From a virus (taxonomy: Duplodnaviria; Caudoviricetes): a DNA stretch of 64,000 nt. A program made the position numbers and the translations under genes. Positions 17,080-47,110 of the stretch are shown in pieces. The notes beneath the pieces were generated by a model. That model had not been told where the DNA came from. It did no database searches and saw only the letters and a list, made by a program, of their open reading frames with translations. The first letter of the stretch is position 1. Each line of letters begins with the position of its first letter. The stretch lies in the IMG/VR virus record IMGVR_UViG_3300035208_007487, one strand, 5' to 3'.

Positions 17080-17158
17080 GATTATTCTCCGTTAGATAAT
17101 ATTTAGCTAAAAATACTAAATAAAGTGCCTTTTTGATATTTTCATAAATAATTATAAT

Positions 17159-18085
17159 ATGGATGATAAAGAATGGGCTTTTTATACTCCTAGTATGCCC
17201 CAAGAACAATTAGCAGATATTAATAATAATGTAAAAGACCATTTTAGTCCTGCATTTAATACTCATAATAAATTTGCTGATCAATCTCTTTATAATAATT
17301 TAAGCGCTCAATATTTTGAACAAAATGGAGTTCAATGCATATACTATGTTTCAACGATCTCAACAACTAAAAAGGCTCCATTCGTAGGTAATCAAACCCA
17401 AGGAATTTATAGAAGTTTTCATACAAAGATTGTAGGGGATTCTATAATACAACCTGAGTTAATTAAATTTGCTAAATTTGGTGCAAGTGGATTAGACCAA
17501 ACATCCTTAGTATTACATAGAGAAGTATTTTTTAAGCATAATGCAAGAAATCTAAGAGAAAGAGGTATTAAACCTGATTTAGATCCAAATAAGCATAACC
17601 CTTGGATATCTCAAAGAGGCTATGCTGATTTTAATTATGAAGGATATAGTGCTGCACAAATTTTTCCAAAAGCGGGGGATTTAATAAAACCTGAATGGAT
17701 TGAAACTCTATATGTGATTGACAGTGTTAATACTAAATTAAGCGATCAATCTTTTATGCAAAGAAGTTATTATTTTAAAATTGCTATTAGAGAATATCAT
17801 GATGATCATAGAAATATTGATCCTAGCTTGGCAACTGAATCAACTAATACGGGTAATTATGTTGAAGAAAAATTTGATCAACCCGCTACATTAGATGTTG
17901 GGCCTTTGGTCGATAATGGGCCTATTGATAAGATCAATAACCCTGATTATGGAGATACTGATAAATTCTGGAAAGATATTGATACTAAAGATGATGTTCT
18001 TTATCGCCCACCTGAAGTACCAGATAGCGAAAAAAATATTTCAAATAGTAAGAAATATGGACAAACTCGTTTTGGTAAATGGTGA
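17159..18085 (+). CDS. neck/head-closure protein (gp14-like)
   Basis: GVQCIYY, FAKFG..DQ, PKAGDLI motifs. Confidence 0.65.
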   Translation: MDDKEWAFYTPSMPQEQLADINNNVKDHFSPAFNTHNKFADQSLYNNLSAQYFEQNGVQCIYYVSTISTTKKAPFVGNQTQGIYRSFHTKIVGDSIIQPELIKFAKFGASGLDQTSLVLHREVFFKHNARNLRERGIKPDLDPNKHNPWISQRGYADFNYEGYSAAQIFPKAGDLIKPEWIETLYVIDSVNTKLSDQSFMQRSYYFKIAIREYHDDHRNIDPSLATESTNTGNYVEEKFDQPATLDVGPLVDNGPIDKINNPDYGDTDKFWKDIDTKDDVLYRPPEVPDSEKNISNSKKYGQTRFGKW

Positions 18086-30771: not shown

Positions 30772-31392
30772 TTATCCAAGCACTTTTTTCTTGAACATTT
30801 CAAATGGAATTTTAAACATAGTCGGAATATCTATTTTAGCAATTCCACTTTCTAATAACCATTTATAATAACTTTTATTAGCAAAAAAATATTTAATTGC
30901 ATCTCCAGTGTCATTATATTGAAACTTAACACCGCCATCTGATTGTATTTCCATAGGAATCCCTCCAAATACAGATGGATCAATTGTTTTAAACATTAAT
31001 TTAACTAAGAAAGCGGGAGGTGTAATGAATTTGAAATTACTCATTTTAGCTACGATATTTTTAGAAGCCATGCCCCATATTGGTTTATGCTCAGAATCTA
31101 TTAATTCTTGCATACCTCTCATAGCTGAAATTGGAGATCCCGCAACTCCAGTTAATTTAATTGGGCCACTTCTTTGTGGTCTAGTTGCAACGAATCCTTT
31201 ATTCTTATCGCCATAAAATTCCCATAGTTTAGCTCTATCGAAAAACTTAGATTCAGTCCAAGATGAACCAGTTGATCTTTCATAAGATGTTTTAAAGATC
31301 TCAAACACCTTATTAAGTTCATTTTGATCTAAATCGTTTACTGTAAATCGCTCTTCGTATAAAAAACCATTATATTCAATTAAAGCGCTCAT
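30772..31392 (-). CDS. hypothetical protein with YNGFLYE N-terminal tag
   Basis: MSALIEYNGFLYEE; late motif upstream. Confidence 0.65.
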   Translation of the reverse strand: MSALIEYNGFLYEERFTVNDLDQNELNKVFEIFKTSYERSTGSSWTESKFFDRAKLWEFYGDKNKGFVATRPQRSGPIKLTGVAGSPISAMRGMQELIDSEHKPIWGMASKNIVAKMSNFKFITPPAFLVKLMFKTIDPSVFGGIPMEIQSDGGVKFQYNDTGDAIKYFFANKSYYKWLLESGIAKIDIPTMFKIPFEMFKKKVLG

Positions 31393-31401
31393 ATTTATTA
31401 T

Positions 31402-31854
31402 TTATAAATTAGCAATATAATCTCTAATTAATTGGATACTCTTTTCAAACCCTGGATGCAATGGTCGTGGGAATTTCCCAAATGGATTAATCCAAATAAA
31501 ATCATCATTTTCCCAATTTAAAATAGGAGTAAACTCATGATCTACAATAGCCAAATAGGTAGTATATTTAAAGGAATTCTCTTTATATTCACATATTTTA
31601 TCTAACTCATATTTTTCATCATATTGAAGTTCCTCTGAGACTTCGCGTCTAAGAGCCTCTTCAAGCTCTTCTCCATCTTCTACCTTCCCACCAACGCTAC
31701 TCCAGCAATGAGGCTTTCTAACCCGCTGTGAGCGGTAAACAAGGCATATTTTACCACTATCCTTAGCATAGAAAATACACCCAACTGCATTTAATCCATA
31801 ATTTAATAATTCTTCATAAATTGCATTATTATATAATAGCTTATACCGATTCAT
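31402..31854 (-). CDS. NUDIX hydrolase
   Basis: Nudix box GGKVEDGEELEEALRREVSEEL; N-terminal YNNAIYEE. Confidence 0.9.
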   Translation of the reverse strand: MNRYKLLYNNAIYEELLNYGLNAVGCIFYAKDSGKICLVYRSQRVRKPHCWSSVGGKVEDGEELEEALRREVSEELQYDEKYELDKICEYKENSFKYTTYLAIVDHEFTPILNWENDDFIWINPFGKFPRPLHPGFEKSIQLIRDYIANL

Positions 31855-33169
31855 TAAACTCCTTAATATATTTACTTTGAAGTTTAAATTCTTGTTTCAG
31901 CGACGAGCACTGCTCCGTTAAGAACTGTAATCTCTCATCTCCGCAAGCGTAACTTTGCGTGGAACTCACGCTAGACTCACCTCTTGCGAGGCTTGTAATA
32001 TATTTGCCCGAAGGTGAATGTTTATCCATCAGCCAGAGCGCATAGTATTGTAGATTTTTAGCAGCGTTAACATCACGATCATGATGCACACCACAATTGC
32101 TACAAGTCCATTCTCTATCTGATAGTTTCAATTCATTATGTTTATGCCCGCAAACACTACAATACCTAGAAGAAGCATAGAAGGTAGGAGCCATTATTAA
32201 ATGGATTCTTGCCCATGCACACTTGTATTTCAAAGTATCTCTAATTTTACCAAAAGAAGAATCTAAAATAGAACTTGCTAATTTATGATTCTTGGACATA
32301 TTTTTTGGCTTTAATGTTTCAATAACAATGGCCTTTGGTTTGGCTTTTACCAAAGAACTTGTCAATTTATGCACAGTATCATTGCGGATATCCGCAACTC
32401 TTTTGTGAACTCTTGACAACCTTGTTATAGCTTTCTTTCTGTTGTTACTTCCTTTTATTCTTCTTGATACCATTCGCTGATATCGTTGAAGCTTCTTTAG
32501 ATGCGATTTATATGCTTTCGGATTCTTGAAAGTATTACCTTCACTAGTAATCGCCAATTCTTTGATCCCTAAATCTACTCCTAATATATCATTAATTGAA
32601 ATATCTTCAAGTTGTGATAATTCTGGGGTTTCAATATCTTCTTTAATAAAAAATGAAACAAACCATCTATCTGCTTGGCGGGATACAGTTGCTTGACTTA
32701 ATTTTATCTTCCCTTCATGTATTGGATAATTCTTCTCCTTTAATCTAATCTTGCCTAATATTGGTAATTGAGCATAATTAGATGCAATAAAAGTTTGACC
32801 GCATAATCTAAATGAATCTCTTTGGCCCCGCTTCTTGAATTTTGGATAACCTGATTTTTTAGCAAAGAATCGTTTAAATGCTTGTTCTAAGTCTCTTAAT
32901 GATTCTTGCCCACAGCATTTAGACACTTGGCTTATCCAAGTTTTTTCTTTTTTTAATAATATTAAATCTTTATACCAATCTATGGCAGTACCTAATTTAA
33001 TTTTATATTTATTTGCATTTTGAGATATTTTGAATTCTTTGTAATTATTGCTTATTATGGCTAATCTATTATTATATGCAAAGCGAGCAACTCCTGCACT
33101 ATTATAACAAAGAGCTGTTTGAGTATTATTGAGTTTTAATTCAAGCACATATCCACGCCATTTTATCAC
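31841..33169 (-). CDS. tnpB: RNA-guided endonuclease TnpB (IS200/IS605/IS607 family), no transposase nearby
   Basis: HTH (AGVARFAYN), GYPKFKKR, RuvC GVDLGI / IVIETL / DRDVNAA, zinc finger CSVC..CSNC. Confidence 0.92.
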   Translation of the reverse strand: MIKWRGYVLELKLNNTQTALCYNSAGVARFAYNNRLAIISNNYKEFKISQNANKYKIKLGTAIDWYKDLILLKKEKTWISQVSKCCGQESLRDLEQAFKRFFAKKSGYPKFKKRGQRDSFRLCGQTFIASNYAQLPILGKIRLKEKNYPIHEGKIKLSQATVSRQADRWFVSFFIKEDIETPELSQLEDISINDILGVDLGIKELAITSEGNTFKNPKAYKSHLKKLQRYQRMVSRRIKGSNNRKKAITRLSRVHKRVADIRNDTVHKLTSSLVKAKPKAIVIETLKPKNMSKNHKLASSILDSSFGKIRDTLKYKCAWARIHLIMAPTFYASSRYCSVCGHKHNELKLSDREWTCSNCGVHHDRDVNAAKNLQYYALWLMDKHSPSGKYITSLARGESSVSSTQSYACGDERLQFLTEQCSSLKQEFKLQSKYIKEFNESV

Positions 33170-33187
33170 TAATATTATTTATCTATT

Positions 33188-33517
33188 TTATACACTTAAA
33201 AAATACTCCTTAATATATGCAACTTCTCCAGAAAACATATTAATAATATCTTCAACTGATAAATTTTCTTTATAGTAATATTCTTCACATACTTGGCATA
33301 ATGCATCAATAGCTGTTTCAAATATTTCTATTTCTCCATATGATATATATTCGTTTATATCATCTGCTTCAAATTTAATTGAATTATTTTTAGTTTGGTA
33401 AACTGTTAAATTATCTAAATTAACTAGTGAAAATAATAATGTTATTGCAATTCCTTTAATATTTTGAGAAATTTGTGACATATTGTTAATCTTATCAATT
33501 GTTTTCTTAACATTCAT
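33188..33517 (-). CDS. hypothetical protein
   Basis: ORF with TAAATA-N6-ATG. Confidence 0.55.
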   Translation of the reverse strand: MNVKKTIDKINNMSQISQNIKGIAITLLFSLVNLDNLTVYQTKNNSIKFEADDINEYISYGEIEIFETAIDALCQVCEEYYYKENLSVEDIINMFSGEVAYIKEYFLSV

Positions 33518-33526
33518 ATGAAATAT

Positions 33527-34120
33527 TTATTGATTAGGTTCTTCAACTTTAGCTTCACTATAAGGAAGTGTTTTAAGTATTTTTAATATATCTGGATTAT
33601 AGCAAATTAAATCAGTAACTCCATTACCAACATATACCATAAATCCATCAATCTGATGAACTCTTAATCTAGATAATAATATATCTTCATGCCCATGATA
33701 ACAATCATACCATATAGATTGAATTAATTCTAATAAGGTATCATTACTTTCTATAAGTGATTCTCTCATTAATCTTTTAGCTCTAATTGGATCTTCATCC
33801 CAATTACTAAGAACCTCTAATTCATCAGGAAGAGCTCTAGTTAGGGCATTAAGCAAACCAATTGGATACTTTGTTTTTGAACCTTTTATATTTGTTCGTC
33901 TGGTTAATCTAACTTCATTTAAAAATCCATCTGGATAGGCGTAGCTAATTGCTTTATCTCTGCTTAAACTTAGATAAAATCCTGGCCCTAATTGGGCATT
34001 ACTATTTTCAGTTAGGGCATATCTATCTTCAAATTTATTAAACTTTACTTTACTGCCATGATACCAAATCTGAGGAATTGCTACAGATTCGTATAAACAT
34101 CCATTATACTCTAATTTCAT
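33527..34120 (-). CDS. ADP-ribosyltransferase-fold protein with YNGCLYE tag
   Basis: WYHGS..F..F..LGPGFYLS..A..YA pattern of ART-PolyVal-like domains. Confidence 0.65.
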   Translation of the reverse strand: MKLEYNGCLYESVAIPQIWYHGSKVKFNKFEDRYALTENSNAQLGPGFYLSLSRDKAISYAYPDGFLNEVRLTRRTNIKGSKTKYPIGLLNALTRALPDELEVLSNWDEDPIRAKRLMRESLIESNDTLLELIQSIWYDCYHGHEDILLSRLRVHQIDGFMVYVGNGVTDLICYNPDILKILKTLPYSEAKVEEPNQ

Positions 34121-34146
34121 ACTAAGTATTTAGATATAATTAAAAT

Positions 34147-34611
34147 ATGAGTGATATAACGGGCTACGGAATTAAATTAAATAAAGAATATAGGCCATAT
34201 TCAAAACTATCATTTAATGAATTCAACAAATCAAATAGTAGCCTTTCTAAGAAAGATATTGAAGAATCTTATGAGAAAACAATACATAAGGTTATAAAAT
34301 ATATTATTGCAATCGGTGCCGAAGAATTACAATCTCAATTAAAAAAATACTCTGAATATGACCCTATTGTAATAAATAGAGAATCAATATCTGAAAAAGA
34401 ATATGCTGAGTCTGGTAGTATGATGGGATTTGAAGTTAGATTATATGCGGATACTGAAATATTAGATAAAATGGTCGAAGCTGCTAAAAAAATAAAGCAG
34501 GATGAAAATATATATACTGAACCTATTAATGGTAAAATTAAAGAAAGTAAATTTAAAGATACATTAGATACTATTATTAAAGTATCGGCTAGGAGAAATA
34601 ATAATGCGTGA
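34147..34611 (+). CDS. hypothetical protein
   Basis: 154-aa ORF heading a small + strand operon. Confidence 0.55.
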   Translation: MSDITGYGIKLNKEYRPYSKLSFNEFNKSNSSLSKKDIEESYEKTIHKVIKYIIAIGAEELQSQLKKYSEYDPIVINRESISEKEYAESGSMMGFEVRLYADTEILDKMVEAAKKIKQDENIYTEPINGKIKESKFKDTLDTIIKVSARRNNNA

Positions 34612-34852
34612 AACAATAACTTCTCATCAATTAGCTAAAGCATTACTTGAAGATGAAGACTTGCCTATTCTTATGATTGTAAATGGCCACACATATAGTT
34701 CAGAAGCCCATAAGTATTCACATGGAGAAATTAAATTAGGAATAAGCACTATAATATATGCTAGTGGATATTCTAAACATATTGTTATAGGACATATGTT
34801 AGAAACTGAGGATAATATTATGGATATTCGAAGTATCAATAAAGATGTCTAG
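34604..34852 (+). CDS. hypothetical protein
   Basis: AGGAG SD; overlaps neighbours. Confidence 0.55.
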   Translation: MRETITSHQLAKALLEDEDLPILMIVNGHTYSSEAHKYSHGEIKLGISTIIYASGYSKHIVIGHMLETEDNIMDIRSINKDV

Positions 34853-35036
34853 GCAAATATTAGAAACTTGTTATTTCTGTCCATTTTGTAAAAAGAAAAG
34901 TGGAACTTTAATTAATGGTAATTGTCCAGACTGTGGAAATCATTATGTAAATCATGAATTAATTCTTTCAAACGATTCAATAATAGTAGTTATTGCAATA
35001 TTACTATTTTTAATATTAATATGGCGCTATATATGA
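34845..35036 (+). CDS. zinc-ribbon membrane protein
   Basis: CPFC..CPDC plus C-terminal TM. Confidence 0.5.
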   Translation: MSRQILETCYFCPFCKKKSGTLINGNCPDCGNHYVNHELILSNDSIIVVIAILLFLILIWRYI

Positions 35037-35470
35037 ATGAATTATTTGCTTTAGTTATATTGGGATGTATCGAAATATTAGTATTGTTATTACATAATTT
35101 TATTGAAAATCATCCTACTTTATATAATACATTAAGATATTATGGGAAATTTACTAACTGCTGTGATATGGTTGGATATGATAAAAAATTATCAAAATTT
35201 TCATATGATACTTATATTTGCAAAAAATGTAATAGAAAATATATTGAAGTTGATGGGAGAAAGCTAGTAAAATTTAAAGCATTAACTATAAAACAAACTT
35301 ATAAAGAAATTACTTATACTATGCATAGAACTAAAGTTAAGCGTATTATTAATCCAATTCTACGCAAAATACAATTTTTTACAAATAAGCCTTATGTAAT
35401 TGCTTCGGTAACTGATCATGGCTATTTTTTGTATTATAAAATAATGCGAGTCTTATATATAAAAATATAA
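35033..35470 (+). CDS. hypothetical membrane-anchored protein
   Basis: N-terminal TM, CC..CKKC; ATGA coupling. Confidence 0.45.
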   Translation: MNELFALVILGCIEILVLLLHNFIENHPTLYNTLRYYGKFTNCCDMVGYDKKLSKFSYDTYICKKCNRKYIEVDGRKLVKFKALTIKQTYKEITYTMHRTKVKRIINPILRKIQFFTNKPYVIASVTDHGYFLYYKIMRVLYIKI

Positions 35471-35475
35471 AATAA

Positions 35476-36216
35476 TCACATTTTCATTTGCTCTACTATT
35501 TCTGGTGAAAAATGCGATCTAATGACATTTGAAATTTTATGCTCAATAGCAGAAATCTTTTCATAGCTAACATTAAAATATTCATGACATTCAGCTAATG
35601 TTTTATATCCACATGAATGACTAATAAAAATCTTTTGTTCAGTTTTATCAAAATTGCATAATATCGAATCTATCTTATTTTTTATTGAAATAGCATCCAA
35701 GCCGTCTTCAGCTTCAGTGGATGAATAAGTTTCTTGTTCAATTGTGTCAAATATATCTAATTCTTCACCGTCTAAATTAATAACTTTATTAACATATTGA
35801 GTTTTTTCATTTGGCAATCCTTTTTTATAATTTCTAATTGAAGCATTTACTCTAGCTGCGGGCATCCTAATTACGCCATTATAACTAATATTCAAAAATA
35901 TTAACAGGCTTTTTTTAATATGCCAAACAATATACGTTAAAAATGTATTAGTTTTATCATCTTTAAATTCTTCAATTCCCTCACTAGCACCAATAATACC
36001 TTCATTAAAAATTTCATTAATATCTATTAATGTTTTAGTATAATAATATCTAGCACATGCAAATATGAATTTGTAAATAGAAGCTAATGCTAAATTCTTA
36101 TATGAAATATCATGAGTTTCATGATATTTTTTAACCAAAGCTTTTTGCTCATCTGAGCTTAATGAAATAGCTTTCTTTAAAATCAATTCCATGTTTGGAT
36201 TTAATTGAACATACAT
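35476..36216 (-). CDS. sigma70-family RNA polymerase sigma factor
   Basis: EIFNEGIIG..IEEF..TFLTYIVWHIK region 2, VIRMP, region 4 KTLAE. Confidence 0.8.
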   Translation of the reverse strand: MYVQLNPNMELILKKAISLSSDEQKALVKKYHETHDISYKNLALASIYKFIFACARYYYTKTLIDINEIFNEGIIGASEGIEEFKDDKTNTFLTYIVWHIKKSLLIFLNISYNGVIRMPAARVNASIRNYKKGLPNEKTQYVNKVINLDGEELDIFDTIEQETYSSTEAEDGLDAISIKNKIDSILCNFDKTEQKIFISHSCGYKTLAECHEYFNVSYEKISAIEHKISNVIRSHFSPEIVEQMKM

Positions 36217-36971
36217 TATTTTTTGCTCTTTTTAGTTGGCATTTTTCTAAAAGACCATTTATCGTATCCCTTAGATTCTGCTATAACTTTATCACTTCCA
36301 ACTGGCATTGGAGGAGTTTTAGTATTCGCAAGAATGCCTCCAAGATACATTTCAATCTCTTGAAAAGCAATATAAGGTTTAATTATTCTATGAAAATTAA
36401 AATCTTTAAGTATAGGATTTTTGATTAATATACTAAGAATTCCTTCTTTTAATAATACATTTGAAATATTACTTATAGGCATTCCAAATATTTTTTCTTC
36501 ACTAACTTGGGATAATCCTTCGCCCTTAAAAATCCTTTCACTTATTCCACAATCATAATAATAATAATTATCCCCAGACATAATTACAAAAATAGGGCAA
36601 TCTAAAGCCCTAAAGATATTATGATTAATTACTGGAGCAAAGCTAGGGGCTTTTCTCCAAGGAATGTCTTCAATTATGTTACAATAATCTTTATAAACAT
36701 TTTTCTTTTCAGCATACCTATCTTTAAGTATATTATAATCTTTTTCAAGATGAGGATATAAAATACCATCAATAGTGATAAGACATTGATACAATACTCC
36801 GCAAAATCCAATTACAGCATTGCAATTAGTATTGATTTTATATTTGTCAAATAGATCACTACCTAGTTCATAAGATTGAACTCTTGAATATATTGGATAA
36901 TCTTCAGAGTTTCCAGTAAAAGACATTCCAATATCATAATAATCTTTAATTTTTTCTCCAAGTATTCTCAT
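36216..36971 (-). CDS. conserved hypothetical phage protein
   Basis: MRI..KDYYD, IGFCG, AFQEIEMYLG, GYDKWSFRK. Confidence 0.6.
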   Translation of the reverse strand: MRILGEKIKDYYDIGMSFTGNSEDYPIYSRVQSYELGSDLFDKYKINTNCNAVIGFCGVLYQCLITIDGILYPHLEKDYNILKDRYAEKKNVYKDYCNIIEDIPWRKAPSFAPVINHNIFRALDCPIFVIMSGDNYYYYDCGISERIFKGEGLSQVSEEKIFGMPISNISNVLLKEGILSILIKNPILKDFNFHRIIKPYIAFQEIEMYLGGILANTKTPPMPVGSDKVIAESKGYDKWSFRKMPTKKSKK

Positions 36972-36972
36972 T

Positions 36973-37263
36973 TCACACCTTTGTTTGAAAATTTCTCATG
37001 AATACTTTACGAATTAATGGACGATGATGATTTGATTTATATAATTCAATCCAGGAATGCCCGCAATCGCACCTACAATAAATTACATGAGATGGGCCTT
37101 CACATTTAGCCGAAATCGTGAAACTAGTTGAAGAACTAGCTCCTTCTTTTTCTAGCGCAATAGATGAATATTCAATTGCTCCACATTTAGGACAAGCAAA
37201 TTGTTCTTCTAAGGCTACATCATTTTCATCTAATTCAAGTTGGTTAACTTTATTTAATTGCAT
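36973..37263 (-). CDS. zinc-ribbon protein
   Basis: CPKC..CDCGHSW. Confidence 0.5.
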   Translation of the reverse strand: MQLNKVNQLELDENDVALEEQFACPKCGAIEYSSIALEKEGASSSTSFTISAKCEGPSHVIYCRCDCGHSWIELYKSNHHRPLIRKVFMRNFQTKV

Positions 37264-37492
37264 TTTCCACTTTCATTATGAAGGGGCACCAATCTGGAAC
37301 ACTTGATTCTTTTTTGGCATTATATGGACGACATCCAGTAGTTGAATAACAATCTTTTTTAAATTTGCAGCCGATTTTAATATCATCATCACAAAAATCA
37401 TCATATGGATCAGGATCAGATTCAATTGTATGAGCTGGGCATTCAATACAAGTAGAAATGCTTAAATCCCCTACATTAGCTATATTACTCAT
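37250..37492 (-). CDS. Cys-rich hypothetical protein
   Basis: CIECP..VPDWCP; AAGGAG SD. Confidence 0.55.
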   Translation of the reverse strand: MSNIANVGDLSISTCIECPAHTIESDPDPYDDFCDDDIKIGCKFKKDCYSTTGCRPYNAKKESSVPDWCPFIMKVENAIK

Positions 37493-37540
37493 ATTGGCTC
37501 CTTATTTATGGGCTGTCTAAAAATTATACAATTATACAGA

Positions 37541-37876
37541 CTAGGTGTCAATTATTTTACCAGGAATTTTTACATCCTCGAACCATTCAGACAATAAAAA
37601 AGCTACAGCGGCTGATTTATGTTCATGCTTAGGTTCCCAACTACTCTGAATTGCCATCAAATGCTTTAAAGCAGTTTGTCCATCAATTCCTTCTTTTTCG
37701 ATAAAATCAGTATCTCCAGATAATCCTTCAAAGAACCAAATACTTTGAATTTTATTCCATTTACTCTGACCTTCTTTAAATTCATTTGGAATATCTTCCC
37801 ACTTAGGTAATAATTTTTCCATATCACCTCCAAAGACCATCTCAACTTTGCTAATTTCTTTAGGTAAATATTTCAT
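37541..37876 (-). CDS. conserved hypothetical phage protein
   Basis: SWEPKHEHK..AFLLSEWF; AAGGAG SD. Confidence 0.65.
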   Translation of the reverse strand: MKYLPKEISKVEMVFGGDMEKLLPKWEDIPNEFKEGQSKWNKIQSIWFFEGLSGDTDFIEKEGIDGQTALKHLMAIQSSWEPKHEHKSAAVAFLLSEWFEDVKIPGKIIDT

Positions 37877-37951
37877 GATTATCTCCTTTATTAAATAAAA
37901 TGCCTCTTCCTAGTTTTATAGAAAGAGGCATAATATTTACAATTTAGCTAA

Positions 37952-38332
37952 TTACTTAGAGACAGTTGGCTTAACACTATCTTTTTCAATAGATATACTA
38001 TTGATAAAGAAATCTTCAGTGCAAAAAGTTGCACGAGCCTGTTGATAGTTAATTTTTAAGATGAAACCACTATCAATAGCCTTGTTGATTAATACTGCTT
38101 GCGAATCAGAAGTAACCACGAATTCATGGTCTTCTGTAGACATAGATCCCACACCATTCCGCATGATTCCCAAAGACGCATCTAATAATGTGTAATTAGG
38201 GCAAAGGATAGGATTCACTTTAATCAGTTTTTTAGGCTGTGCAATGGTATTATTATCAGTAGATGAATATCCAAAACATCCACCGAGCATGCAAAGCATG
38301 GTTAATCCGATTGCTAATCCAAGTTTCTTCAT
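37952..38332 (-). CDS. putative lipoprotein
   Basis: MKK + hydrophobic stretch + LGGC lipobox. Confidence 0.6.
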   Translation of the reverse strand: MKKLGLAIGLTMLCMLGGCFGYSSTDNNTIAQPKKLIKVNPILCPNYTLLDASLGIMRNGVGSMSTEDHEFVVTSDSQAVLINKAIDSGFILKINYQQARATFCTEDFFINSISIEKDSVKPTVSK

Positions 38333-38359
38333 TGTTCTTCTTTCTGATTGAGTGGAAAA

Positions 38360-38542
38360 TTATTCTTCGTCGTCATCATCTAGATCATGAACAATCTGAT
38401 TTAATCTATCAATTGTTCCAAATGGTGTATCATGATTATCATCATCATCAAATGCTCTAGACATTGGTCTAATTCCAGTTACATCTAAACCAATATCTAA
38501 AGGTAATTTGGCAATATCACCTAAAGCACTAAACAACCCCAT
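38360..38542 (-). CDS. hypothetical protein
   Basis: AAGGAG SD, 60 aa. Confidence 0.55.
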   Translation of the reverse strand: MGLFSALGDIAKLPLDIGLDVTGIRPMSRAFDDDDNHDTPFGTIDRLNQIVHDLDDDDEE

Positions 38543-38554
38543 TTTAAGCTCCTT

Positions 38555-38776
38555 TTATTCAATTATATCGCTAGCTAAATCAATGCATGCTTCAGTTATG
38601 CATACACAGCTATATTTTTCTCGTCCAGGTATTCTATCAATTTGCTTTACAATATAGGCTTGCCCATATGCCAATGATTCATCAATAGGTGCTCCTACAA
38701 TAATACCACGATATCCTTCTTTTTTATCATCTATTCGCTTGATAATAATTTCAGTTCCTTCTGGATAGTATCGCAC
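38555..38776 (-). CDS. hypothetical SH3-like small protein
   Basis: AAGGAG SD. Confidence 0.5.
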   Translation of the reverse strand: MRYYPEGTEIIIKRIDDKKEGYRGIIVGAPIDESLAYGQAYIVKQIDRIPGREKYSCVCITEACIDLASDIIE

Positions 38777-38868
38777 ATATTCTCCTTTATTTTTGAGTGA
38801 ATATTTTTCACACTAAATAAAATATCTTGCTTAATGTGATGAAATCACCTAATTCTACGTTAAATAAT

Positions 38869-39780
38869 TTATTCATCCTCAACAAATTTTCCATTAATCA
38901 TTTTATAAAACGTATTGGCTTTAATGCGCTTTCCATCAATTTTCAAGGTGCTGCAATTAATGATTTCCCCATTAATCCATTCAGATAAAGTCAAAAAATC
39001 ACCTAAAGCTCCTTTGGCTTTGCTATCAGGTCCAAATGCAACTGCTAAAGATTGCTCTCCACTAACAATTGCTTGACTGCTAGTGCCTACTGTGGATGCT
39101 AAAGATTGTTTTCCACTATTTGAGGCTAATGAACGATATCCACTATTTGAGGCTGATGACCAATTTCCACTATTTGAGGCTAATGAACGATATCCACTAT
39201 TTGAGGCTGATGACCAATTTCCACTATTTGAGGCTGATGAACGATTTCCACTATTTGAGGCTGATGAACAATCTCCACTATTTGAAGCTGATGAACAATC
39301 TCCACTATTTGAAGCTGATGAACAATCTCCACTATTTGAGGCTGATGAACGATTTCCACTATTTGAGGCTGATGAACAATCTCCACTATTGCTGGCTAAT
39401 GAACAATCTCCACTATTTGAAGCTGATGAACAATCTCCACTATTTGAGGCTACTGAACAATCCTTAGTTTGATGCTCTTTAGACTTAGCATATTCAGCGC
39501 ATAATTGGGTATATTCAATAATATCAATTTCTTTAATAATAGTTATTTTTGTACCGGCCTGTTTAGAGTCCTTAGATTCACCATTAACAATTCCATCAAG
39601 TTCTACTTCACAGAATCTAGATTCTCCTGGATTATAGTAAGAAAATACATCTAGTGGGTTTGTGCAAGCATGAAAGCCCTCTTGACATAGCTCTGCATGA
39701 TCTGTTACATAGGTCTTACCTATTTCGTATTGAAAATCTCTGCACTGCAAATTCTTATCAAATCCCTTAAAACATTTCAT
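38869..39780 (-). CDS. phage protein with conserved N-terminal domain and 9-aa SSASNSG repeats
   Basis: KGFDKNLQCRDFQYEIGKTY..C..GFHAC..PLDVF.YY family motif; C-terminal IKANTFY. Confidence 0.8.
   Translation of the reverse strand: MKCFKGFDKNLQCRDFQYEIGKTYVTDHAELCQEGFHACTNPLDVFSYYNPGESRFCEVELDGIVNGESKDSKQAGTKITIIKEIDIIEYTQLCAEYAKSKEHQTKDCSVASNSGDCSSASNSGDCSLASNSGDCSSASNSGNRSSASNSGDCSSASNSGDCSSASNSGDCSSASNSGNRSSASNSGNWSSASNSGYRSLASNSGNWSSASNSGYRSLASNSGKQSLASTVGTSSQAIVSGEQSLAVAFGPDSKAKGALGDFLTLSEWINGEIINCSTLKIDGKRIKANTFYKMINGKFVEDE
39112..39462 (-). repeat. 13 x 27-bp coding tandem repeat
   Basis: Unit ccactatttgaggctgatgaacaatct with variants. Confidence 0.9.
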
Positions 39781-39846
39781 TTTCTAGCACTCTCTTTCCA
39801 TTTTATGGGTGTGATTATTCAGATCTAACTGGAGACTCATTAATTT

Positions 39847-40185
39847 TTATTTTTGGGTAAATATATCTCGGCTTAATTTTATGATTTTGACCAGCATACC
39901 AAAGTCATCTAATTCACCTACATATACTAAATTATCATTTTGAATAATTTTTAATTCGGCTGAATGTTTATAGCCATAACGATATATAGATAATTGTATA
40001 TTTCTTTGATGAAGTAATTCTAAATATTGAGTTTCCTCCAATGATAATGTCCAATAAAATCCATTATCATTGCAATAAATGTCACATTTAATATCTTCTA
40101 ATAATTTCAATAATGTTGCAATATCTTCATCTGTGAAATTATCAGCTACATAAAATAATCCATTTAAATAGGTAAATGATTTCAT
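39847..40185 (-). CDS. hypothetical protein
   Basis: ORF in co-oriented cluster. Confidence 0.5.
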   Translation of the reverse strand: MKSFTYLNGLFYVADNFTDEDIATLLKLLEDIKCDIYCNDNGFYWTLSLEETQYLELLHQRNIQLSIYRYGYKHSAELKIIQNDNLVYVGELDDFGMLVKIIKLSRDIFTQK

Positions 40186-40186
40186 C

Positions 40187-40489
40187 TTAAGAATAGCTTT
40201 CTATATGTTTTTTATAGCAAGAAGGAATTTCGCCACTTTCAACCCTTAATGTAATTAATTTAAGATAGTTTGTAAACTCATTTGAATGATATTTGATTAT
40301 ACTTAATGCAACTAATATTGAATAACTAATTTGAGCATTAAAATTTGCTTCACTAAATTCTTTAATAAAATTATCCAAATGTTTTAGGTCATCTCTATTA
40401 CCTAATACTTCTTTATATATTAGTTGCATGGCTTCAAATTCACCTGCACTATTATTTAATTCTTGTAATTTATTAATTATTTCAAGCAT
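40187..40489 (-). CDS. hypothetical protein
   Basis: ORF in co-oriented cluster. Confidence 0.5.
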   Translation of the reverse strand: MLEIINKLQELNNSAGEFEAMQLIYKEVLGNRDDLKHLDNFIKEFSEANFNAQISYSILVALSIIKYHSNEFTNYLKLITLRVESGEIPSCYKKHIESYS

Positions 40490-40670
40490 ATTGGATCTAT
40501 TAGTTATTAGGTTCTAGCTGCAATAGTTGTAGCTAATACAATGGTATCTGCAAAAATAATCATACATATATTATCATAGTCAATAGAATGATCTTTTTTA
40601 TATTCAATTATTGTTATTTTAATGAATTCTGCATTAATACAAATTAATAGAATCCAAAATATTAGCAGAA

Positions 40671-40853
40671 TCATATTTTCGCCTTAGCCTTAAAGTAGCA
40701 AAAAAGTAAGCTACAATCTACAAAAACTATTGGAAATAATGCATACATTAAATACCAGCCTCTAATACATTTATCAATTATTATTTTCTTAATATAATCA
40801 AAATTTAAATAAACAACATATAATGCACAGATTATTAAAATTATTTTACTCAT
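40671..40853 (-). CDS. small membrane protein
   Basis: Two hydrophobic segments. Confidence 0.4.
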   Translation of the reverse strand: MSKIILIICALYVVYLNFDYIKKIIIDKCIRGWYLMYALFPIVFVDCSLLFCYFKAKAKI

Positions 40854-40863
40854 TTTATTATTT

Positions 40864-41181
40864 TCATCTAATTATTAGTTTTTGGCCTAATTCATACATT
40901 GGCATTTTTCCATCCCATTTGGACAATATTAACAACTTAACCGAATGCAAGATGCCTTCATATTTTGGATTATATCCCATATCAAGATAAGCCGCATGTA
41001 GTTTTGTTGCAATTTTACTATCATCCCAATCATGAATTAATGCTTGCCCAATATAGTCTTGCATACTCATTATAAGATTATGCTCTTTACAAAACTTCAA
41101 TGAATCAACTAATGGATAGCCACTTTCATCTTCCATTTCAAAAATACCATATACTAATCCATTAAATATTCTAAGACTCAT
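40864..41181 (-). CDS. hypothetical protein
   Basis: G(Y)PL..SL..C pattern reminiscent of an AlaRS helical fragment; not assigned. Confidence 0.5.
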   Translation of the reverse strand: MSLRIFNGLVYGIFEMEDESGYPLVDSLKFCKEHNLIMSMQDYIGQALIHDWDDSKIATKLHAAYLDMGYNPKYEGILHSVKLLILSKWDGKMPMYELGQKLIIR

Positions 41182-41665
41182 AATATTTTTCGCTCCTTAA
41201 ACCAAGTTCAATTTTTCTATTATTAATCCAATTCTGCTTAACAGTATTTAAATACTCTTTATATTCATTTTCAAGTACGTCATATATTTTACTATCAATA
41301 TATTCAGAAATTTTCAATAAAAATTCTTCAGGTATCTTAAATTCTACCCGAAAGCGATCAATGTGATTTCCGAATGAATCCATATCATCATATACACGCA
41401 TATTAGCAACTAAAGCATAATAATCATCATTATAATAAATGAGACAGGTGGGAGTTATTTTATCAAATCTATACCAATTTATTTCATCTTCGATATTGTC
41501 AGTTACAATTAGACTTAATTTAATATATCGAATTATTGATTCTTTAGTAATTAATTTTCTTAATTCATTAATTAAATTTATATTATGTTCAATTTTAATG
41601 TTTTTTATTAACTTTAATTTCTTAGTTAATCTAGGCAATTTACGACTAATATCATTTTCAAACAT
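41171..41665 (-). CDS. hypothetical protein
   Basis: Coupled ORF. Confidence 0.5.
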   Translation of the reverse strand: MFENDISRKLPRLTKKLKLIKNIKIEHNINLINELRKLITKESIIRYIKLSLIVTDNIEDEINWYRFDKITPTCLIYYNDDYYALVANMRVYDDMDSFGNHIDRFRVEFKIPEEFLLKISEYIDSKIYDVLENEYKEYLNTVKQNWINNRKIELGLRSEKYYES

Positions 41666-41876
41666 TTTTAGCTTTCATATTATCTAATTCATTGTGCATT
41701 TCCAGCAAATTAATATTGAAATTATGATCTAAGCATTCATCATGAATAAATCCCTTAAAACTTATTAAATCAAATTTAGAACCAAATCCAAATCTAAATT
41801 CAACATATCCTCCATTATTTAAACAGCCATGCTCTTCAGTTACTTCATGCCCGCATACGAAACAGGTTTTTGGCAT
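41658..41876 (-). CDS. zinc-finger small protein
   Basis: CFVC...FGFGSKFD...HDEC. Confidence 0.55.
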   Translation of the reverse strand: MPKTCFVCGHEVTEEHGCLNNGGYVEFRFGFGSKFDLISFKGFIHDECLDHNFNINLLEMHNELDNMKAKNV

Positions 41877-41993
41877 ACTTTCCCCTAAATTTATTAGTTA
41901 TTGAATATTACATATCTAATATAACAAAATTATATAAAGATGTAAATGTAAAAGTTAGTTAATTTCCATTTTTAACTAAAAACATACTAGAGA

Positions 41994-43280
41994 CTAATTT
42001 AATATTTCTAACTTTTCCTTAATATATTCTACAACATCACTTGACAAAGACTCATCATATTTGTTTTTATGTTCAATCCAATGCAATTTATTTTCTGCAC
42101 TTATTAATGGATTTTTAAACATCTCTAATAATTTAGCTAAATCTAAACCATTCACATTATCCATATGCAATACTGAACCAAGCATCATTGAAGTTGGAAC
42201 TAATATGAAGGCAGTAATATCCTCAGATGAAGCATTATTCTCAATTCCATACTTTAGCTCACTTTGGAAATTTTCAATATACTTAATATATTCATTAAAT
42301 TTAAACTCGCCAAATACATCAACAATCCAATCTATATTCTTTTCACTCAACTGCTGTAGCTCATCATAAAAAATAGAAGTCATCTCAATAATAGTTTTTT
42401 TATTAAACCCGAACATACAATGGGTATTAGTACTAAATCTACGAGATAATATGTTTCTAAATTTACTAGCAAATGGAATTTTATACTTATCAGGTATTGA
42501 ATCAAAAAATCCACTATTATTAAGTTTATATTCATAAAATTTAGGTATTTCATCAAATGATCTTAGTACCTTTTCACTACTTGAATTATAAAGAGCCTGT
42601 GATATTTCTTCATATGTAATTTTGTCATATAAATTAGGATGAGATTTAATATAATTGAATAAATCTACTTTAGTCTTTCCAACTATATTAGATGGAGTTT
42701 TGTCAAATAGAGTAACGTCTATTACATTGTACGAAGTAGGACTTAAAAATACTGCTTGGGCTGGTTCATTGGTATGTATAATTCCTCTATGATGATCAAC
42801 TACATAATCATATCCTAATTTCCGCAATAAAGAATTCCAGTTATTGGCATTTTTTGAATATTCCATAGTAGCATACCAAATATATCCCCCTGGACTTTTA
42901 AATAATGCCCCACTTTCTATATCGTGCATTTCTAAACTAGAAAAACCTAAAACTTTTAACTTTTCTAAATCATTGACTAAATTAGCCTCACTATAATGTT
43001 GTAGATCTAATTTAATAGTTCCTGGCCTAGGTTTTATAAAATATACATATCCATTTTTAGCTTCACTAGTATATTCTGGAACTTTTCCTTCCATGTCCTC
43101 TACATTATAGGCATAAATTCCATTTGGAGTCTCCCATTTAGATTTAGGATTAATTCCTATTTTATTAATATCTCTATATGAAAAATATACATCAGGATCT
43201 TGTTCATATTTTTCTCTTAATTCATCTACTGATGGATTTATTTTAGATTCATATAAAAATCCATTATAAGCAATCTTCAT
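41994..43280 (-). CDS. YNGxLYE-tagged protein, paralog A (conserved N-domain, variable C-domain)
   Basis: MKIAYNGFLYES; KIGINPKSKWETPNGIYAY; GIIHTNEPAQAVFL. Confidence 0.75.
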   Translation of the reverse strand: MKIAYNGFLYESKINPSVDELREKYEQDPDVYFSYRDINKIGINPKSKWETPNGIYAYNVEDMEGKVPEYTSEAKNGYVYFIKPRPGTIKLDLQHYSEANLVNDLEKLKVLGFSSLEMHDIESGALFKSPGGYIWYATMEYSKNANNWNSLLRKLGYDYVVDHHRGIIHTNEPAQAVFLSPTSYNVIDVTLFDKTPSNIVGKTKVDLFNYIKSHPNLYDKITYEEISQALYNSSSEKVLRSFDEIPKFYEYKLNNSGFFDSIPDKYKIPFASKFRNILSRRFSTNTHCMFGFNKKTIIEMTSIFYDELQQLSEKNIDWIVDVFGEFKFNEYIKYIENFQSELKYGIENNASSEDITAFILVPTSMMLGSVLHMDNVNGLDLAKLLEMFKNPLISAENKLHWIEHKNKYDESLSSDVVEYIKEKLEILN

Positions 43281-44584
43281 ATTATTCCTAATCCTTGTTT
43301 AATATACTCTTGAACCTCACCTTGAAGAGATTCGTCATTTATGTCTCCTAAACTAATCCAATCATTAGTATTATTAGCGGCTATTAATGAACTAGAAAAC
43401 TTTTTAAGTATTACGTTTAGCTTATTTTTATCAATATCCCCTAATGCCACATCAACCAATGGCTTATTTTTAATAGTTGGTCCTAATACAAAGTATTTAA
43501 TTTCATTAATATTAGCATTTTTCTCAATACCAATATCAAAGGAACTCTTGAATCTATCAATATATTTCATATATTCATCAAAACTAAATTCATCAACGAT
43601 TAATACAGCCCAATCTATTCTAGTTGTACTTAATTTCTGTAGATTCTCATTAAATATATCAGTTAATTCCAATATTGTTTTTTTATTTATTTTTTGCATA
43701 CATCCTTCATATACTGAAAATCTTCTATCTAATAATTTTTTGAATTTAAGTGCAAAAGCTACTTTATAATCATTAGGAATTGCACTAAAGAAACTATTTG
43801 GACTAACATTAATACAATATTCATAAAATGGCTTAATGGTGTCAAATGATGATAATACCTCTTCTTTAGATGAATCATCTATAGCATCAATTATTTTATA
43901 CATTTGACTGCCTAATAATTTCTTGTAGGTAGCAATGTTGTTATTAATTTTAAGATAATTGAACACATCCCATTTTGCTCCTCTTGGGATTTGCTTATCC
44001 TCAGAGTTATCAAACTTTGATACATCTAATACCGTAAATGATGATGGATTTAAAAACACTGCTTGTGCTGGCTCGTTAGAATGTATAATCCCCATATGAT
44101 GATCAACTACGTAATCATACCCCATTTTTCTAAATATTGCATTCCAGCTATTTGCACTAGTTGAATACTTCATCGTAACATACCAAATATACCCACCTGG
44201 AGTTTTATAATAAGATTTTTGCTCAATTTCGGCATCACTTAATTTAGAAAATCCTAATTGTTTTAATTTTTCTAAATCTTTTTTAAAATCATTACTATTA
44301 TAGGATTGTAAGTCTAATTTTATTGAACCTGGATTTGGCTTAATAAAATATACATATCCGCGATCCCCACCTGTATATTGTGCTTCTTGTTCCCCCATAT
44401 CATCTATATTATACGCATATATGCCATTTGGAGTTCTCCATTCAGATTTTGGATTTATTCCAATCTTATTAATACTTCGATATGAAAAATATACATTAAG
44501 ATCGTCTTCATATTTCTGTTTTAGTTCGTCCACTGTTGGAGTATTTTTAGATTCATATAAAAATCCATTATAACATATCTTCAT
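43277..44584 (-). CDS. YNGxLYE-tagged protein, paralog B
   Basis: MKICYNGFLYES; same conserved N-domain. Confidence 0.75.
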   Translation of the reverse strand: MKICYNGFLYESKNTPTVDELKQKYEDDLNVYFSYRSINKIGINPKSEWRTPNGIYAYNIDDMGEQEAQYTGGDRGYVYFIKPNPGSIKLDLQSYNSNDFKKDLEKLKQLGFSKLSDAEIEQKSYYKTPGGYIWYVTMKYSTSANSWNAIFRKMGYDYVVDHHMGIIHSNEPAQAVFLNPSSFTVLDVSKFDNSEDKQIPRGAKWDVFNYLKINNNIATYKKLLGSQMYKIIDAIDDSSKEEVLSSFDTIKPFYEYCINVSPNSFFSAIPNDYKVAFALKFKKLLDRRFSVYEGCMQKINKKTILELTDIFNENLQKLSTTRIDWAVLIVDEFSFDEYMKYIDRFKSSFDIGIEKNANINEIKYFVLGPTIKNKPLVDVALGDIDKNKLNVILKKFSSSLIAANNTNDWISLGDINDESLQGEVQEYIKQGLGII

Positions 44585-44611
44585 ATAAAATATTTATAAT
44601 AAATAATAAAC

Positions 44612-45118
44612 ATGAAGATTGCTTTTAATAATTATCTATATGAAAGTATAGACAATCTACCATTTCCACCTAAAGGATCTATTCCTATCCCAAGTGGATA
44701 TACTAGAATGTATCACCAAACTGATCCAGCTAAAGTTCCAAGTATTCTGAAAGACGGATTACAAATATCTAAATCTAGAGGCAAACTTGTAGGAGATCCC
44801 GTTGGAATATGGGCTTCAGATAATCCAAAAGGATTTTATGGAGATAGCTCGCATCTAGATACTATAGAATTTAAAATCCCAACTGTCGAATATAATCAAT
44901 TACTTGGACATAGCTTAATAGAACGAGATGTACCCCCAGAAGATATACTTGCAGTCCATTCAGATTGGCAAAATACCGTCAATTATATGGTTAAAAATAA
45001 TATGATAGATCAAGTCAAAAATGGAGATTTCGACTATCTTATGAATAAAGAATATGAACATGCCTCAGATTATGACCAATATACAAAAGCAATTCAATAT
45101 GTAAAATCCCATTACTAA
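44612..45118 (+). CDS. tagged ADP-ribosyltransferase-fold protein
   Basis: MKIAFNNYLYES; MYHQT....SILKDGL..GIWAS..VPPEDI (Tpt1/ART-like). Confidence 0.6.
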   Translation: MKIAFNNYLYESIDNLPFPPKGSIPIPSGYTRMYHQTDPAKVPSILKDGLQISKSRGKLVGDPVGIWASDNPKGFYGDSSHLDTIEFKIPTVEYNQLLGHSLIERDVPPEDILAVHSDWQNTVNYMVKNNMIDQVKNGDFDYLMNKEYEHASDYDQYTKAIQYVKSHY

Positions 45119-45134
45119 TTTATAAATATCTAGC

Positions 45135-46613
45135 ATGAAGATTGCATTTAATGGCTACTTATATGAAGCTAGAAATATTCCAACTGAAGATGAATTGAGA
45201 GAAAAATACGGATCATTAGGAGATTCTTATTTTTTCTCGTATAGATCAATTAATAAAATTGGATTAAATCCACAATCTCAATGGAATACCCCCAATGGAG
45301 TATACACATATAACTTCAAAGATCTTGGAAATAGAGAATCCCCATATAAGGGAACTTCTACAAATGGATATATATATGTTATTAAACTTAAACCAAACAT
45401 CAATGGAATAGATTCACGTACTTATAATACAATAGACCTAGAACAAGATCTTAATAAACTTAAACAATTTGGATATGAAATAGATTTAGAAAAATATTAT
45501 AGAATGAATAACCCATTTAAAGCTATCTGGACTGCTACATATGATGTTAAAAAATCACCTAATGATTGGACTAAAATATTATTAGCTTTGGGATATTATT
45601 ACGTTAGAGATAGAGGTGAAGGAGTTATTCATACTAATGAGCCATACCAAACAGTATTCTTATCACCTAAAGCTTATGATATAGTAGATTCAGGAACATA
45701 TGGAAATGTGGCTATATTTAATGGAACAATTGACCAAAAATGGATAAAAAAATACGCAGCATCTCTTACTGAAAAAAATGTAAAACCTGTTGCAAAATCT
45801 ATCTACAAATATTTTACTCAACATAATAATTTACCAAGATTCGATATATTTAATGCAACAAATACTAATATACTTACTGATATATATAAAACGGCTTTTA
45901 AACTAATAGGAACTTATTCAATTAATCAAATATTTCAAGAAAATCCAAAAATGTTAGTTGCACTTGGGATATCATCAGATTTTGCAAAAGAATTAATAAA
46001 TCAATACAAATCCGCTTTTACTAATTCTACTAGAGCTGAATGGCTAAAAGCTTTAAATGATGAAGATAGATTAGAATATGTTGATAAATTTATAGATACA
46101 TTTAAAAAAATAACAGAAGTTGATACTTATTGGATAGCTTATTTACAAATTAAAGATAGAATCCCAATGATAATAAAATTGGCCAAGGAAATCAATAGTA
46201 GTATAATTAATACACCAGATAATCTTAATGTCCTAATCTATGATATTAGGCCAATATCAAAAGAAGACCAATTGAAACTATTTGATATCCTTATCCCCTC
46301 AATAAAAGAAATAACTAATGATGGAAATGTACAGTGGCTTAATAACTTATTATATCAATATCCAGAACTTCAAGCTCAAAAATTAACTACTACTCTGCAT
46401 GATGAAGTTGCTAAATTAATAACAAATAATGAAATGTTTTTCTTAAGCTATTTTACTATCGAGGACAATAAGCATATGAAAGCATTTGAAATGATTATGC
46501 ATACTTTTAGCAAATATATTAATAGATCAATTAAAGAATACCCTGAAAATATCTTTTGGAAACATTACCCTACTCCATTTAAACAAGTATTTGAACCTAA
46601 AGAATTAAATTAA
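45135..46613 (+). CDS. YNGxLYE-tagged protein, paralog C
   Basis: MKIAFNGYLYEA; KIGLNPQSQWNTPNGVYTY; GVIHTNEPYQTVFL. Confidence 0.75.
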   Translation: MKIAFNGYLYEARNIPTEDELREKYGSLGDSYFFSYRSINKIGLNPQSQWNTPNGVYTYNFKDLGNRESPYKGTSTNGYIYVIKLKPNINGIDSRTYNTIDLEQDLNKLKQFGYEIDLEKYYRMNNPFKAIWTATYDVKKSPNDWTKILLALGYYYVRDRGEGVIHTNEPYQTVFLSPKAYDIVDSGTYGNVAIFNGTIDQKWIKKYAASLTEKNVKPVAKSIYKYFTQHNNLPRFDIFNATNTNILTDIYKTAFKLIGTYSINQIFQENPKMLVALGISSDFAKELINQYKSAFTNSTRAEWLKALNDEDRLEYVDKFIDTFKKITEVDTYWIAYLQIKDRIPMIIKLAKEINSSIINTPDNLNVLIYDIRPISKEDQLKLFDILIPSIKEITNDGNVQWLNNLLYQYPELQAQKLTTTLHDEVAKLITNNEMFFLSYFTIEDNKHMKAFEMIMHTFSKYINRSIKEYPENIFWKHYPTPFKQVFEPKELN

Positions 46614-46689: not shown

Positions 46690-47110
46690 ATTGGAGCACC
46701 TATATGCCCATAAAATTTTTTTACATATGGGGGTATTTAAATAATAATTTTTTTGAGGGTACTTAATAACCGCCCTTTAAAATATGATGATGGACATTTT
46801 TGAGAAATGTGACAATATGGGGCAAAATTTTTTAAATTAATGGGGGTCATTAATAACCCTCTTTTGAATGTGAAGAGCTATGGGGCAAAAATTTTTATTC
46901 TTTGGGGGTAGATTGAAATATGAATACTTGTAAGGATATTTAATAACCCCTTTGGGAATACTGGTTGACATTTTTGAGCATAGGGGGGAATATGGGGCAA
47001 AAATTTTTATTCTTTGGGGGTCTAAGATAAGATATAGGGGGCATACCTGCCACCCTCCCTATATAACAAGGGTGGCCCTACACCTTAGCCATAGCTATTT
47101 TAATACCCCC
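46690..47110. repeat. non-coding direct-repeat block (candidate replication origin)
   Basis: TATGGGGCAAAA(A)TTTTT...TGGGGGT x3, TTAATAACC x3, GACATTTTTGAG x2. Confidence 0.55.

Follow-up and report, generated by a model that had tools for sequence, protein, structure and literature searches.

We propose that a short N-terminal tag, shared by seven genes between positions 30772 and 46613 of a 64,000-nucleotide stretch of viral DNA (IMG/VR virus record IMGVR_UViG_3300035208_007487, hereafter the window), is probably a lineage variant of the capsid-targeting propeptide of phage T4, serving an enlarged and enzyme-rich set of cargo proteins. The window corresponds to positions 96001-160000 of contig C18 (212,780 bp, approximately 29% G+C), part of a 2.36-Mb assembly that is a mixed bin, in which contigs below 36% G+C make up about 1.24 Mb and the others are near 43%. 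By analogy with T4, the tagged genes would be expressed late, the aromatic residues of the tag would dock the cargo onto the scaffolding core during prohead assembly, and a gp21-type S77 protease would cut after the Glu that ends the tag, leaving mature enzymes free in the head. The cargo would then leave with the DNA at infection and could reach its host targets ahead of all phage gene expression, in the manner of T4 Alt and Ip1-3. A preliminary description of this DNA had put forward capsid loading from the letters alone, and the in silico tests fit that reading in the head machinery encoded, the cleavage rule, the leaders of cargo homologues and the placement of the tag outside the folds. 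The cargo probably comprises several proteins of the ADP-ribosyltransferase (ART) fold, a NUDIX hydrolase, a GNAT-like protein, a DUF5661 protein and others.

Retranslation of the open reading frames (ORFs) returned the seven N-termini of this interval as they had been described. The tag is 11 residues long, with the consensus M-K-[IL]-x-[YF]-N-[GN]-x-[LI]-Y-E, and Ser usually comes next. The strict pattern [YF]N[GN]x[LI]YE, slightly widened, was searched in the 6,895 ORFs of at least 50 residues from the whole assembly, where it matched nine times, every time on C18 and every time at 4-7 residues from the start Met. Looser patterns and a profile scan with a position-specific scoring matrix (PSSM) raise the total to 14 tagged genes in the phage, 12 on C18 and two on contig C172. 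On C18 the ten tags covered by the scan of that contig score 27-33 bits, against only 10 bits for the eleventh-best hit, and when all six frames of the assembly and one relative (2.66 Mb) are taken together, 24 of the hits at or above 12 bits lie at ATG starts and 4 lie elsewhere. The scan of genome and relative for the tag near the N-terminus, which the preliminary description had put forward, finds the strict motif only near starts in the assembly, and tags of the same type in the relative. The tagged genes of the window are the following.

30772..31392 (-): cargo 1, 206 residues, candidate GNAT-like protein; tag in residues 1-13, 31354-31392
31402..31854 (-): cargo 2, NUDIX hydrolase by profile match, 150 residues; tag in residues 1-14, 31813-31854
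33527..34120 (-): cargo 3, ART-PolyVal-type ADP-ribosyltransferase-like, 197 residues; tag in residues 1-11, 34088-34120
41994..43280 (-): cargo 4, 428 residues; tag at 43248-43280
43277..44584 (-): cargo 5, 435 residues, paralogue of cargo 4 (52% identity); tag at 44552-44584
44612..45118 (+): cargo 6, 168 residues, no family; tag at 44612-44644
45135..46613 (+): cargo 7, 492 residues, paralogue of cargos 4 and 5 (31-45% identity); tag at 45135-45167

Outside the window, the looser patterns and the PSSM place further tagged genes on C18 (contig coordinates).

17287-17598 (-): tagged gene
186284-186547 (-): tagged gene
187245-188291 (+): tagged gene
204347-204733 (-): tagged gene
207810-208208 (+): tagged gene, weaker

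The tag stands apart from the proteins that carry it. When the first 14 residues of the 12 C18 cargo proteins are removed, BLASTP at E<=0.01 links only the three paralogues, in agreement with the claim that, outside these, similarity stops after the Glu. A tag forming an integral strand of each domain had been named as what would speak against a targeting role, and we find the tag outside the folded domains. In the AlphaFold2 (AF2) model of the 428-residue protein, residues 1-13 have a predicted local distance difference test (pLDDT) score below 50, indicating a disordered tag, and the Pfam and PHROG domain matches start past it, at residue 23 for NUDIX, at 14-16 for the ART-like match and at 34 for the tagged DUF5661 protein. 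Furthermore, alignment of the 206-residue protein with 19 homologues, including copies within long proteins, begins right after the Glu of the tag. Two small proteins of the window have N-termini that resemble the tag and fall under the PSSM threshold: one at 40864-41181 (-) begins with the off-pattern F-N-G-L-V-Y and has I-F-E three residues on, and one at 39847-40185 (-) has Y-L-N-G-L-F-Y and no Glu. These may be decayed or variant tags.

The domains that follow the tag could be assigned with differing firmness. Membership of cargo 2 in the NUDIX family is firm on its profile match (PF00293, residues 23-109, 51.1 bits against a cut-off of 21.1). Cargo 3 matches the Pfam ART-PolyVal profile (PF18760) with E 6e-4 and 21 bits, below the cut-off of 31.2; it matches phrog_25279 with E 1.6e-20 over residues 14-191, and nine homologues at 41-51% identity are annotated PF18760, with WYHG and GPGFY motifs that align. 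The ART-like label given to cargos 3 and 6 in the preliminary description is therefore supported for cargo 3, by its homologues, but not for cargo 6, for which neither profile similarity nor a usable fold was obtained: it has no Pfam or PHROG family, comparison with the ART-PolyVal alignment by hhalign was negative, no related loci were found, and a single-sequence AF2 model with a pLDDT of 39 is unusable, so that language-model leads to DarT-, PARP- and Arr-type clusters are all that it offers. Tagged proteins of 348 and 87 residues align to the ART-PolyVal family only over the tag and a YHG motif.

The 428-residue protein is modelled (AF2, mean pLDDT 87.5) with an N-terminal ART-superfamily-like domain, approximately residues 27-195, and a C-terminal helical-repeat domain. 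The best structural match of the N-domain by VIA-align is a domain of the cyanophage A4 pre-ejectosome (9k3a_B, Z 7.7), followed at Z 5-6 by ART-fold chains (MbcT, ParT, NatT, RES, PARPs and diphtheria-type), and a Foldseek search with the model returned the same pre-ejectosome, itself an injected protein, as the sole match at E<0.001. A search of PDB sequences with the family profile gave no match. The N-domain is conserved in cargo 7, of which the C-terminal part has diverged, and by these consistent but modest matches all three paralogues (428, 435 and 492 residues) may carry an ART-fold N-domain. For cargo 1 a public predicted model resembles GNAT folds, with template modelling scores of 0.50-0.58, and a GNAT-like identity is held as a lead only. 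Its domain has 315 homologues, some of them one module inside proteins of up to 3,603 residues; in four such long proteins Pfam found GNAT and DUF4116 only, and their status as polyvalent proteins is not established.

The contig is that of a T4-related jumbo phage, and a T4-like head-maturation pathway is therefore a reasonable expectation, beyond mere analogy. Among the genes of window and contig are those for a T4-type tail sheath, gp15, large terminase, Peptidase_S77 prohead protease (57.7 bits) and Gp23-family capsid protein (240 bits), and the head module on C18 runs in the T4 order of portal, protease, scaffold and capsid protein, so that a gp22-type scaffold, a gp23-type capsid protein and a gp21-type protease are all present. 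His85 and Ser140 of T4 gp21, the catalytic His and Ser, are both kept in the C18 protease (71646-72386 of the contig). T4 gp21 cleaves after L/I-x-E (PMC9026906), and the account of T4 from which the preliminary description reasoned, in which internal proteins carry a leader of about 10 residues that gp21 removes at this motif, agrees with the review (PMC9026906). Every tag in the phage ends [LI]-Y-E and fits this rule; one tag in the relative ends V-Y-E. The phage's own predicted cleavage sites resemble the tag as well. T4 gp23 FLTE/A (the slash marks the cut) aligns by MAFFT with GFLPE/S in the capsid proteins of this phage and a relative, and this predicted capsid maturation site is nearly identical to the tag GFLYE/S, while the N-terminus of the protease has PIYE/S aligned to T4 PMLE/S, with P[IV][YF]E there in relatives.

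The likeness to the T4 leader extends beyond the cleavage site. T4 IPII and IPIII start with MKTYQEFIAE, and IPI has a related start (read from NC_000866). Ten residues of the T4 leader suffice, and mutagenesis assigned targeting mainly to residues 4 and 7 and processing to residues 8 and 10 (PMC9026906). In sequence comparison the tag, [YF]-x-x-[FYCA]-[LI]-x-E, has the spacing of these four T4 positions, with one residue added upstream. The tag had been called different in sequence from that of T4, which understates the likeness, since the aromatic-x-x-aromatic-[LI]-x-E skeleton is kept. A complex prediction that paired residues 1-45 of the 428-residue cargo with the scaffold, represented by a 7-row alignment, gave a median score of 0.00, which neither supports nor opposes binding. 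The idea that the tag copies a repeat of the scaffold was dropped, as no internal PSSM hit in the scaffold exceeds 8 bits; such hits on C18 all fall in other genes.

What fills the leader slot in relatives provides a further line of evidence. Tags of this type (MKIAFKNFIYE, for example) number at least 12 in a complete 306-kb IMG/VR phage whose capsid protein shares 60% identity with that of C18. Eight of them lie in one 12-kb locus, and most are on cargo unrelated to that of this phage; the DUF5661 protein is tagged in both. The nine ART-PolyVal homologues have leaders such as MRFKEFLLE and MKFIQFLNE in the aligned slot, with a nearly invariant Glu column, and distant homologues of the 428-residue family have leaders such as MKSFKQFLIE, followed by the shared N-domain of about 190 residues and varied C-terminal parts. 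Among NUDIX homologues, three at 33-39% identity begin at the core with no tag, and one at 42% has a T4-like leader. T4-like leaders thus occupy the same slot of cargo homologues, and the tag therefore appears to replace, in this lineage, the classic T4-type leader for cargo of the same kinds. The ART-like cargo has homologues among cultured phages only in jumbo phages of the Rak2/GAP32/CBB type, where the N-terminus ends I-M-E. Five IMG/VR records with ART-PolyVal-like hits gave no Peptidase_S77 match, and are uninformative, being fragments or unrelated small phages; in a megablast search the 30-47 kb region matched none of 50,697 phage records.

Two further kinds of N-terminus were seen beside the tag. 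A second leader of about 44 residues, containing C-Y-x-V-H-N-T-T-T-K-K-C and belonging to no Pfam family, precedes a NUDIX domain in the relative, at 146732-147424 (-), and the YNGCLYE tag in a homologue of the 428-residue family, ending L-H-E in both; it also precedes a 64-residue ORF with a YNGFLY motif near position 3691 (-) of C172. It may be another targeting propeptide, or an alternative address. In addition, tag-like peptides ending [LI]-x-E, such as M-K-I-W-F-N-G-L-I-F-E, open some of the proteins encoded within or next to the head module, both in relatives and in this phage, and some structural or core proteins may use the same address. These head-module starts are as follows.

L016:4334-5461 (+): tag-like start
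L015:11732-12475 (-): tag-like start
L005:15196-16335 (-): tag-like start

Late expression of the tagged genes is suggested by a promoter motif of fixed position. Of the 274 C18 genes, 33 have [ACT]TAAATA at exactly 6 nt, and 12 more at 7 nt, upstream of the ATG, compared with 1-4 genes for TAAATA at each of the spacings of 4, 5 and 8 nt. The genes so marked include those for portal, terminase and tail proteins and most of the tagged genes, and they lack a Shine-Dalgarno sequence. The spacing apparently marks the late class, and it implies that the late mRNAs would be leaderless or nearly so. The late motifs that the preliminary description had assigned to the tagged genes were recovered: in five genes the ATG is preceded at exactly 6 nt by [TA]ATAAATA or CTAAATA, in the NUDIX gene TAAATA lies 14 nt upstream of the start and AGGAG comes after it, and the gene at 41994-43280, with no promoter of its own, is coupled as had been stated, its ATG overlapping the stop of the upstream paralogue (ATGA).

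31399-31406 (-): late motif of cargo 1, TATAAATA, 6 nt before the ATG
31869-31874 (-): late motif of cargo 2, TAAATA, with AGGAG next
34127-34133 (-): late motif of cargo 3, CTAAATA
44591-44598 (-): late motif of cargo 5, TATAAATA, 6 nt before the ATG
44598-44605 (+): late motif of cargo 6, AATAAATA
45121-45128 (+): late motif of cargo 7, TATAAATA

The motifs of cargos 5 and 6 are divergent and have one base in common (44591-44605).

The tag could have other explanations, and we have weighed four of them. It might be a propeptide or docking peptide for another purpose, keeping toxic ART or NUDIX proteins inactive within the cell that makes them, or attaching them to tail, baseplate or portal and not loading them into the core of the head. 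An inhibitory pro-sequence would be sensible for cargo of which several members are toxin-like by their ART-fold matches (MbcT, ParT, RES and diphtheria-type), and an interaction with the scaffold could not be shown; on the other hand, one disordered peptide of 11 residues is unlikely to inhibit each of the unrelated folds behind it, the [LI]-x-E ending and the likeness to the capsid maturation site point to the head protease, which in T4 is active only in proheads, and T4-like leaders take the same place in cargo homologues, so that we regard this explanation as improbable. A role as recognition leader for a multi-substrate modifying enzyme, as in ribosomally synthesized and post-translationally modified peptides or otherwise, with no sorting function, is very unlikely: the assembly has 22 Radical_SAM matches, not one of them on C18, where 12 tagged genes lie, and the tag ends in a protease motif and is free of the Cys, Ser and Thr pattern typical of such leaders. 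Conservation might instead reflect a function of RNA or DNA, either a downstream box for leaderless late mRNAs or a recombination cassette of promoter and first codons. The motif stands 6 nt upstream of the start in most tagged genes, and these lack a Shine-Dalgarno sequence, so that their first codons would lie at the 5' end of the mRNA; in T4-type genomes, shuffling is known to be mediated by short conserved cassettes (PMC2839356). Synonymous sites in the tag vary freely, however, with all four Gly codons in use, Ser written as TCN or AGT, and Leu or Ile as TTA, CTA, ATT or ATC, and selection is therefore on the peptide and not on the DNA; moreover, about 35 other late genes have the same spacing of promoter and ATG and no tag, and the tag is also present in the NUDIX gene and the gene at 41994, whose promoters are not arranged in this way. 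Shuffling, perhaps a side effect, leaves peptide-level selection unexplained, and we give an RNA or DNA function very little credence. Least probable of the four is a common address to one host protein or compartment, used after late synthesis and with no packaging. Nothing specific favours it beyond packaging being itself inferred, enzymes made late and aimed at the host would act as the cell nears lysis, and the links to the protease motif and to the T4 leader would become coincidence. Each of the four explains fewer facts than loading into the capsid does.

Some points nevertheless weigh against loading into the capsid. The tag is too short for homology with the T4 leader to be provable, and the two may have converged under the same rules of protease and scaffold. 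Loading, cleavage and injection are all argued from T4 by analogy. The 168-residue cargo is without a family. In the model of the 206-residue protein the match to GNAT folds opens at about residue 8-10, and the last residues of its tag might thus be modelled within the first strand, although its sequence homology starts past the Glu. Finally, a scan of IMG/VR for the exact degenerate DNA pattern of the tag gave one match, internal to a topoisomerase-like ORF and due to chance, and the exact pattern is otherwise absent there.

The proposed capsid loading has its closest parallel in T4 IPI, IPII and IPIII (Mullaney and Black 1996, as reviewed in PMC9026906 and PMC3012670), where a peptide of about 10 residues, following Met-Lys and built as aromatic-x-x-aromatic-[LI]-x-E, likewise stands on otherwise unrelated proteins, encoded by genes that are clustered in plastic regions and expressed late, as the tagged genes would be, in a phage with gp20, gp21, gp22 and gp23 machinery. 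Compared with the T4 leader, the tag has one extra residue, a conserved Asn-Gly (or Asn-Asn) turn, Tyr fixed at P2 and Ser usual at P1'. The phage has about 14 cargo genes, where T4 has 3 and the T-evens as a group are reported to have about 10, and its cargo consists mostly of enzymes of 100-490 residues, unlike the small inhibitor proteins of T4. The phage is moreover a relative of about 300 kb. T4 Ip1-3 are injected GmrSD inhibitors that share only the leader, and T4 Alt is a packaged, gp21-processed ART that is injected (PMC9026906); together they are functional precedents for the cargo set described here. The ART-like cargo would share with Alt its fold, its late expression, an N-terminal propeptide ending I-x-E, loading into the head and injection. 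Alt differs in being a protein of 682 residues from the R-S-E Alt/VIP2 clade, whereas the cargo is of the ART-PolyVal type or has an ART-like domain fused to helical repeats, and no sequence similarity to Alt was seen in the ART-like cargo. The repertoire of ART-PolyVal, NUDIX and GNAT domains is also that of polyvalent proteins (Iyer et al. 2017, PMC5512222), for which delivery with the DNA at the earliest stage of infection is predicted; these carry many domains in one polypeptide, whereas in this phage the domains are encoded one per gene, and every gene brings a tag and a late promoter to itself. In the phiKZ-like phages 201phi2-1 and SPN3US, many head proteins, including those of the inner body, are cut after Glu at a three-residue motif and a large load is injected, but the motif is S/A-x-E, the enzyme a diverged gp21 homologue, the propeptides are long with no short common N-terminal address defined, and the lineage is a different one (PMC9026906).

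Several other features of the assembly and the contig were observed. A second S77 protease lies on contig C25 and a second Gp23-family gene on contig C138, and there may be more than one T4-like phage in the assembly; alternatively, the C138 gene could encode a gp24-like vertex protein. The large terminase gene of the window (21520-24495 (-), 991 residues) has a LAGLIDADG domain between its Terminase_6N and Terminase_6C matches, which looks like an intein or a homing-endonuclease insertion. Amid the tagged genes sits a TnpB gene (31841-33169 (-), 442 residues, with OrfB_IS605 and Cas12f1-like TNB matches), which at its 3' end runs into the beginning of the tagged NUDIX gene and there includes the TAAATA and AGGAG of the latter; two further likely TnpB copies lie at 15843-17168 and 192289-193593 of C18, recognised by N-terminal similarity only. 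A DUF7666 protein at 38869-39780 (-) contains a long array of near-identical 9-residue repeats, S-A-S-N-S-G-D/N-C/R/W-S. From about position 47000 of the window on, past the last tagged gene, G+C climbs from approximately 0.28 to 0.35-0.39, and this region holds genes for a UvrD-type helicase, a sigma-like protein, tRNA-Lys, tRNA-His and a free-standing LAGLIDADG protein; three sigma-70-family genes were seen on the contig.

That one portable leader can direct diverse internal proteins into the head is textbook knowledge for T4, established since the 1990s, and capsid loading as proposed here is an extension of this principle and no new mechanism. Reviews suggest that T4-like phages use the leader to load varied proteins (PMC9026906). 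We see somewhat better than an even chance that this lineage of T4-related phages of about 300 kb has re-coded its capsid-targeting sequence (Y-N-G-F-L-Y-E) in step with its own capsid and protease sites, pre-loading a dozen or more stand-alone enzymes, and, at the same modest level of confidence, that the result is a one-gene-per-domain counterpart of the polyvalent proteins and a far larger injected arsenal than in the T4-type phages studied. If so, the injected proteins of an uncultured giant phage could be read from its sequence by a simple rule, which would provide about 14 candidate first-strike effectors, among them ART-fold, NUDIX and GNAT-like proteins, with host transcription, NAD and ADP-ribose signalling, or defence as possible targets; an anti-defence role is one that we only infer. 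The tag would also show the T4 address evolving together with the protease sites, offer a route to the packaged effectors of other T4-related metagenomic phages, and possibly provide a second, orthogonal tag for the engineering of T4-style protein delivery.

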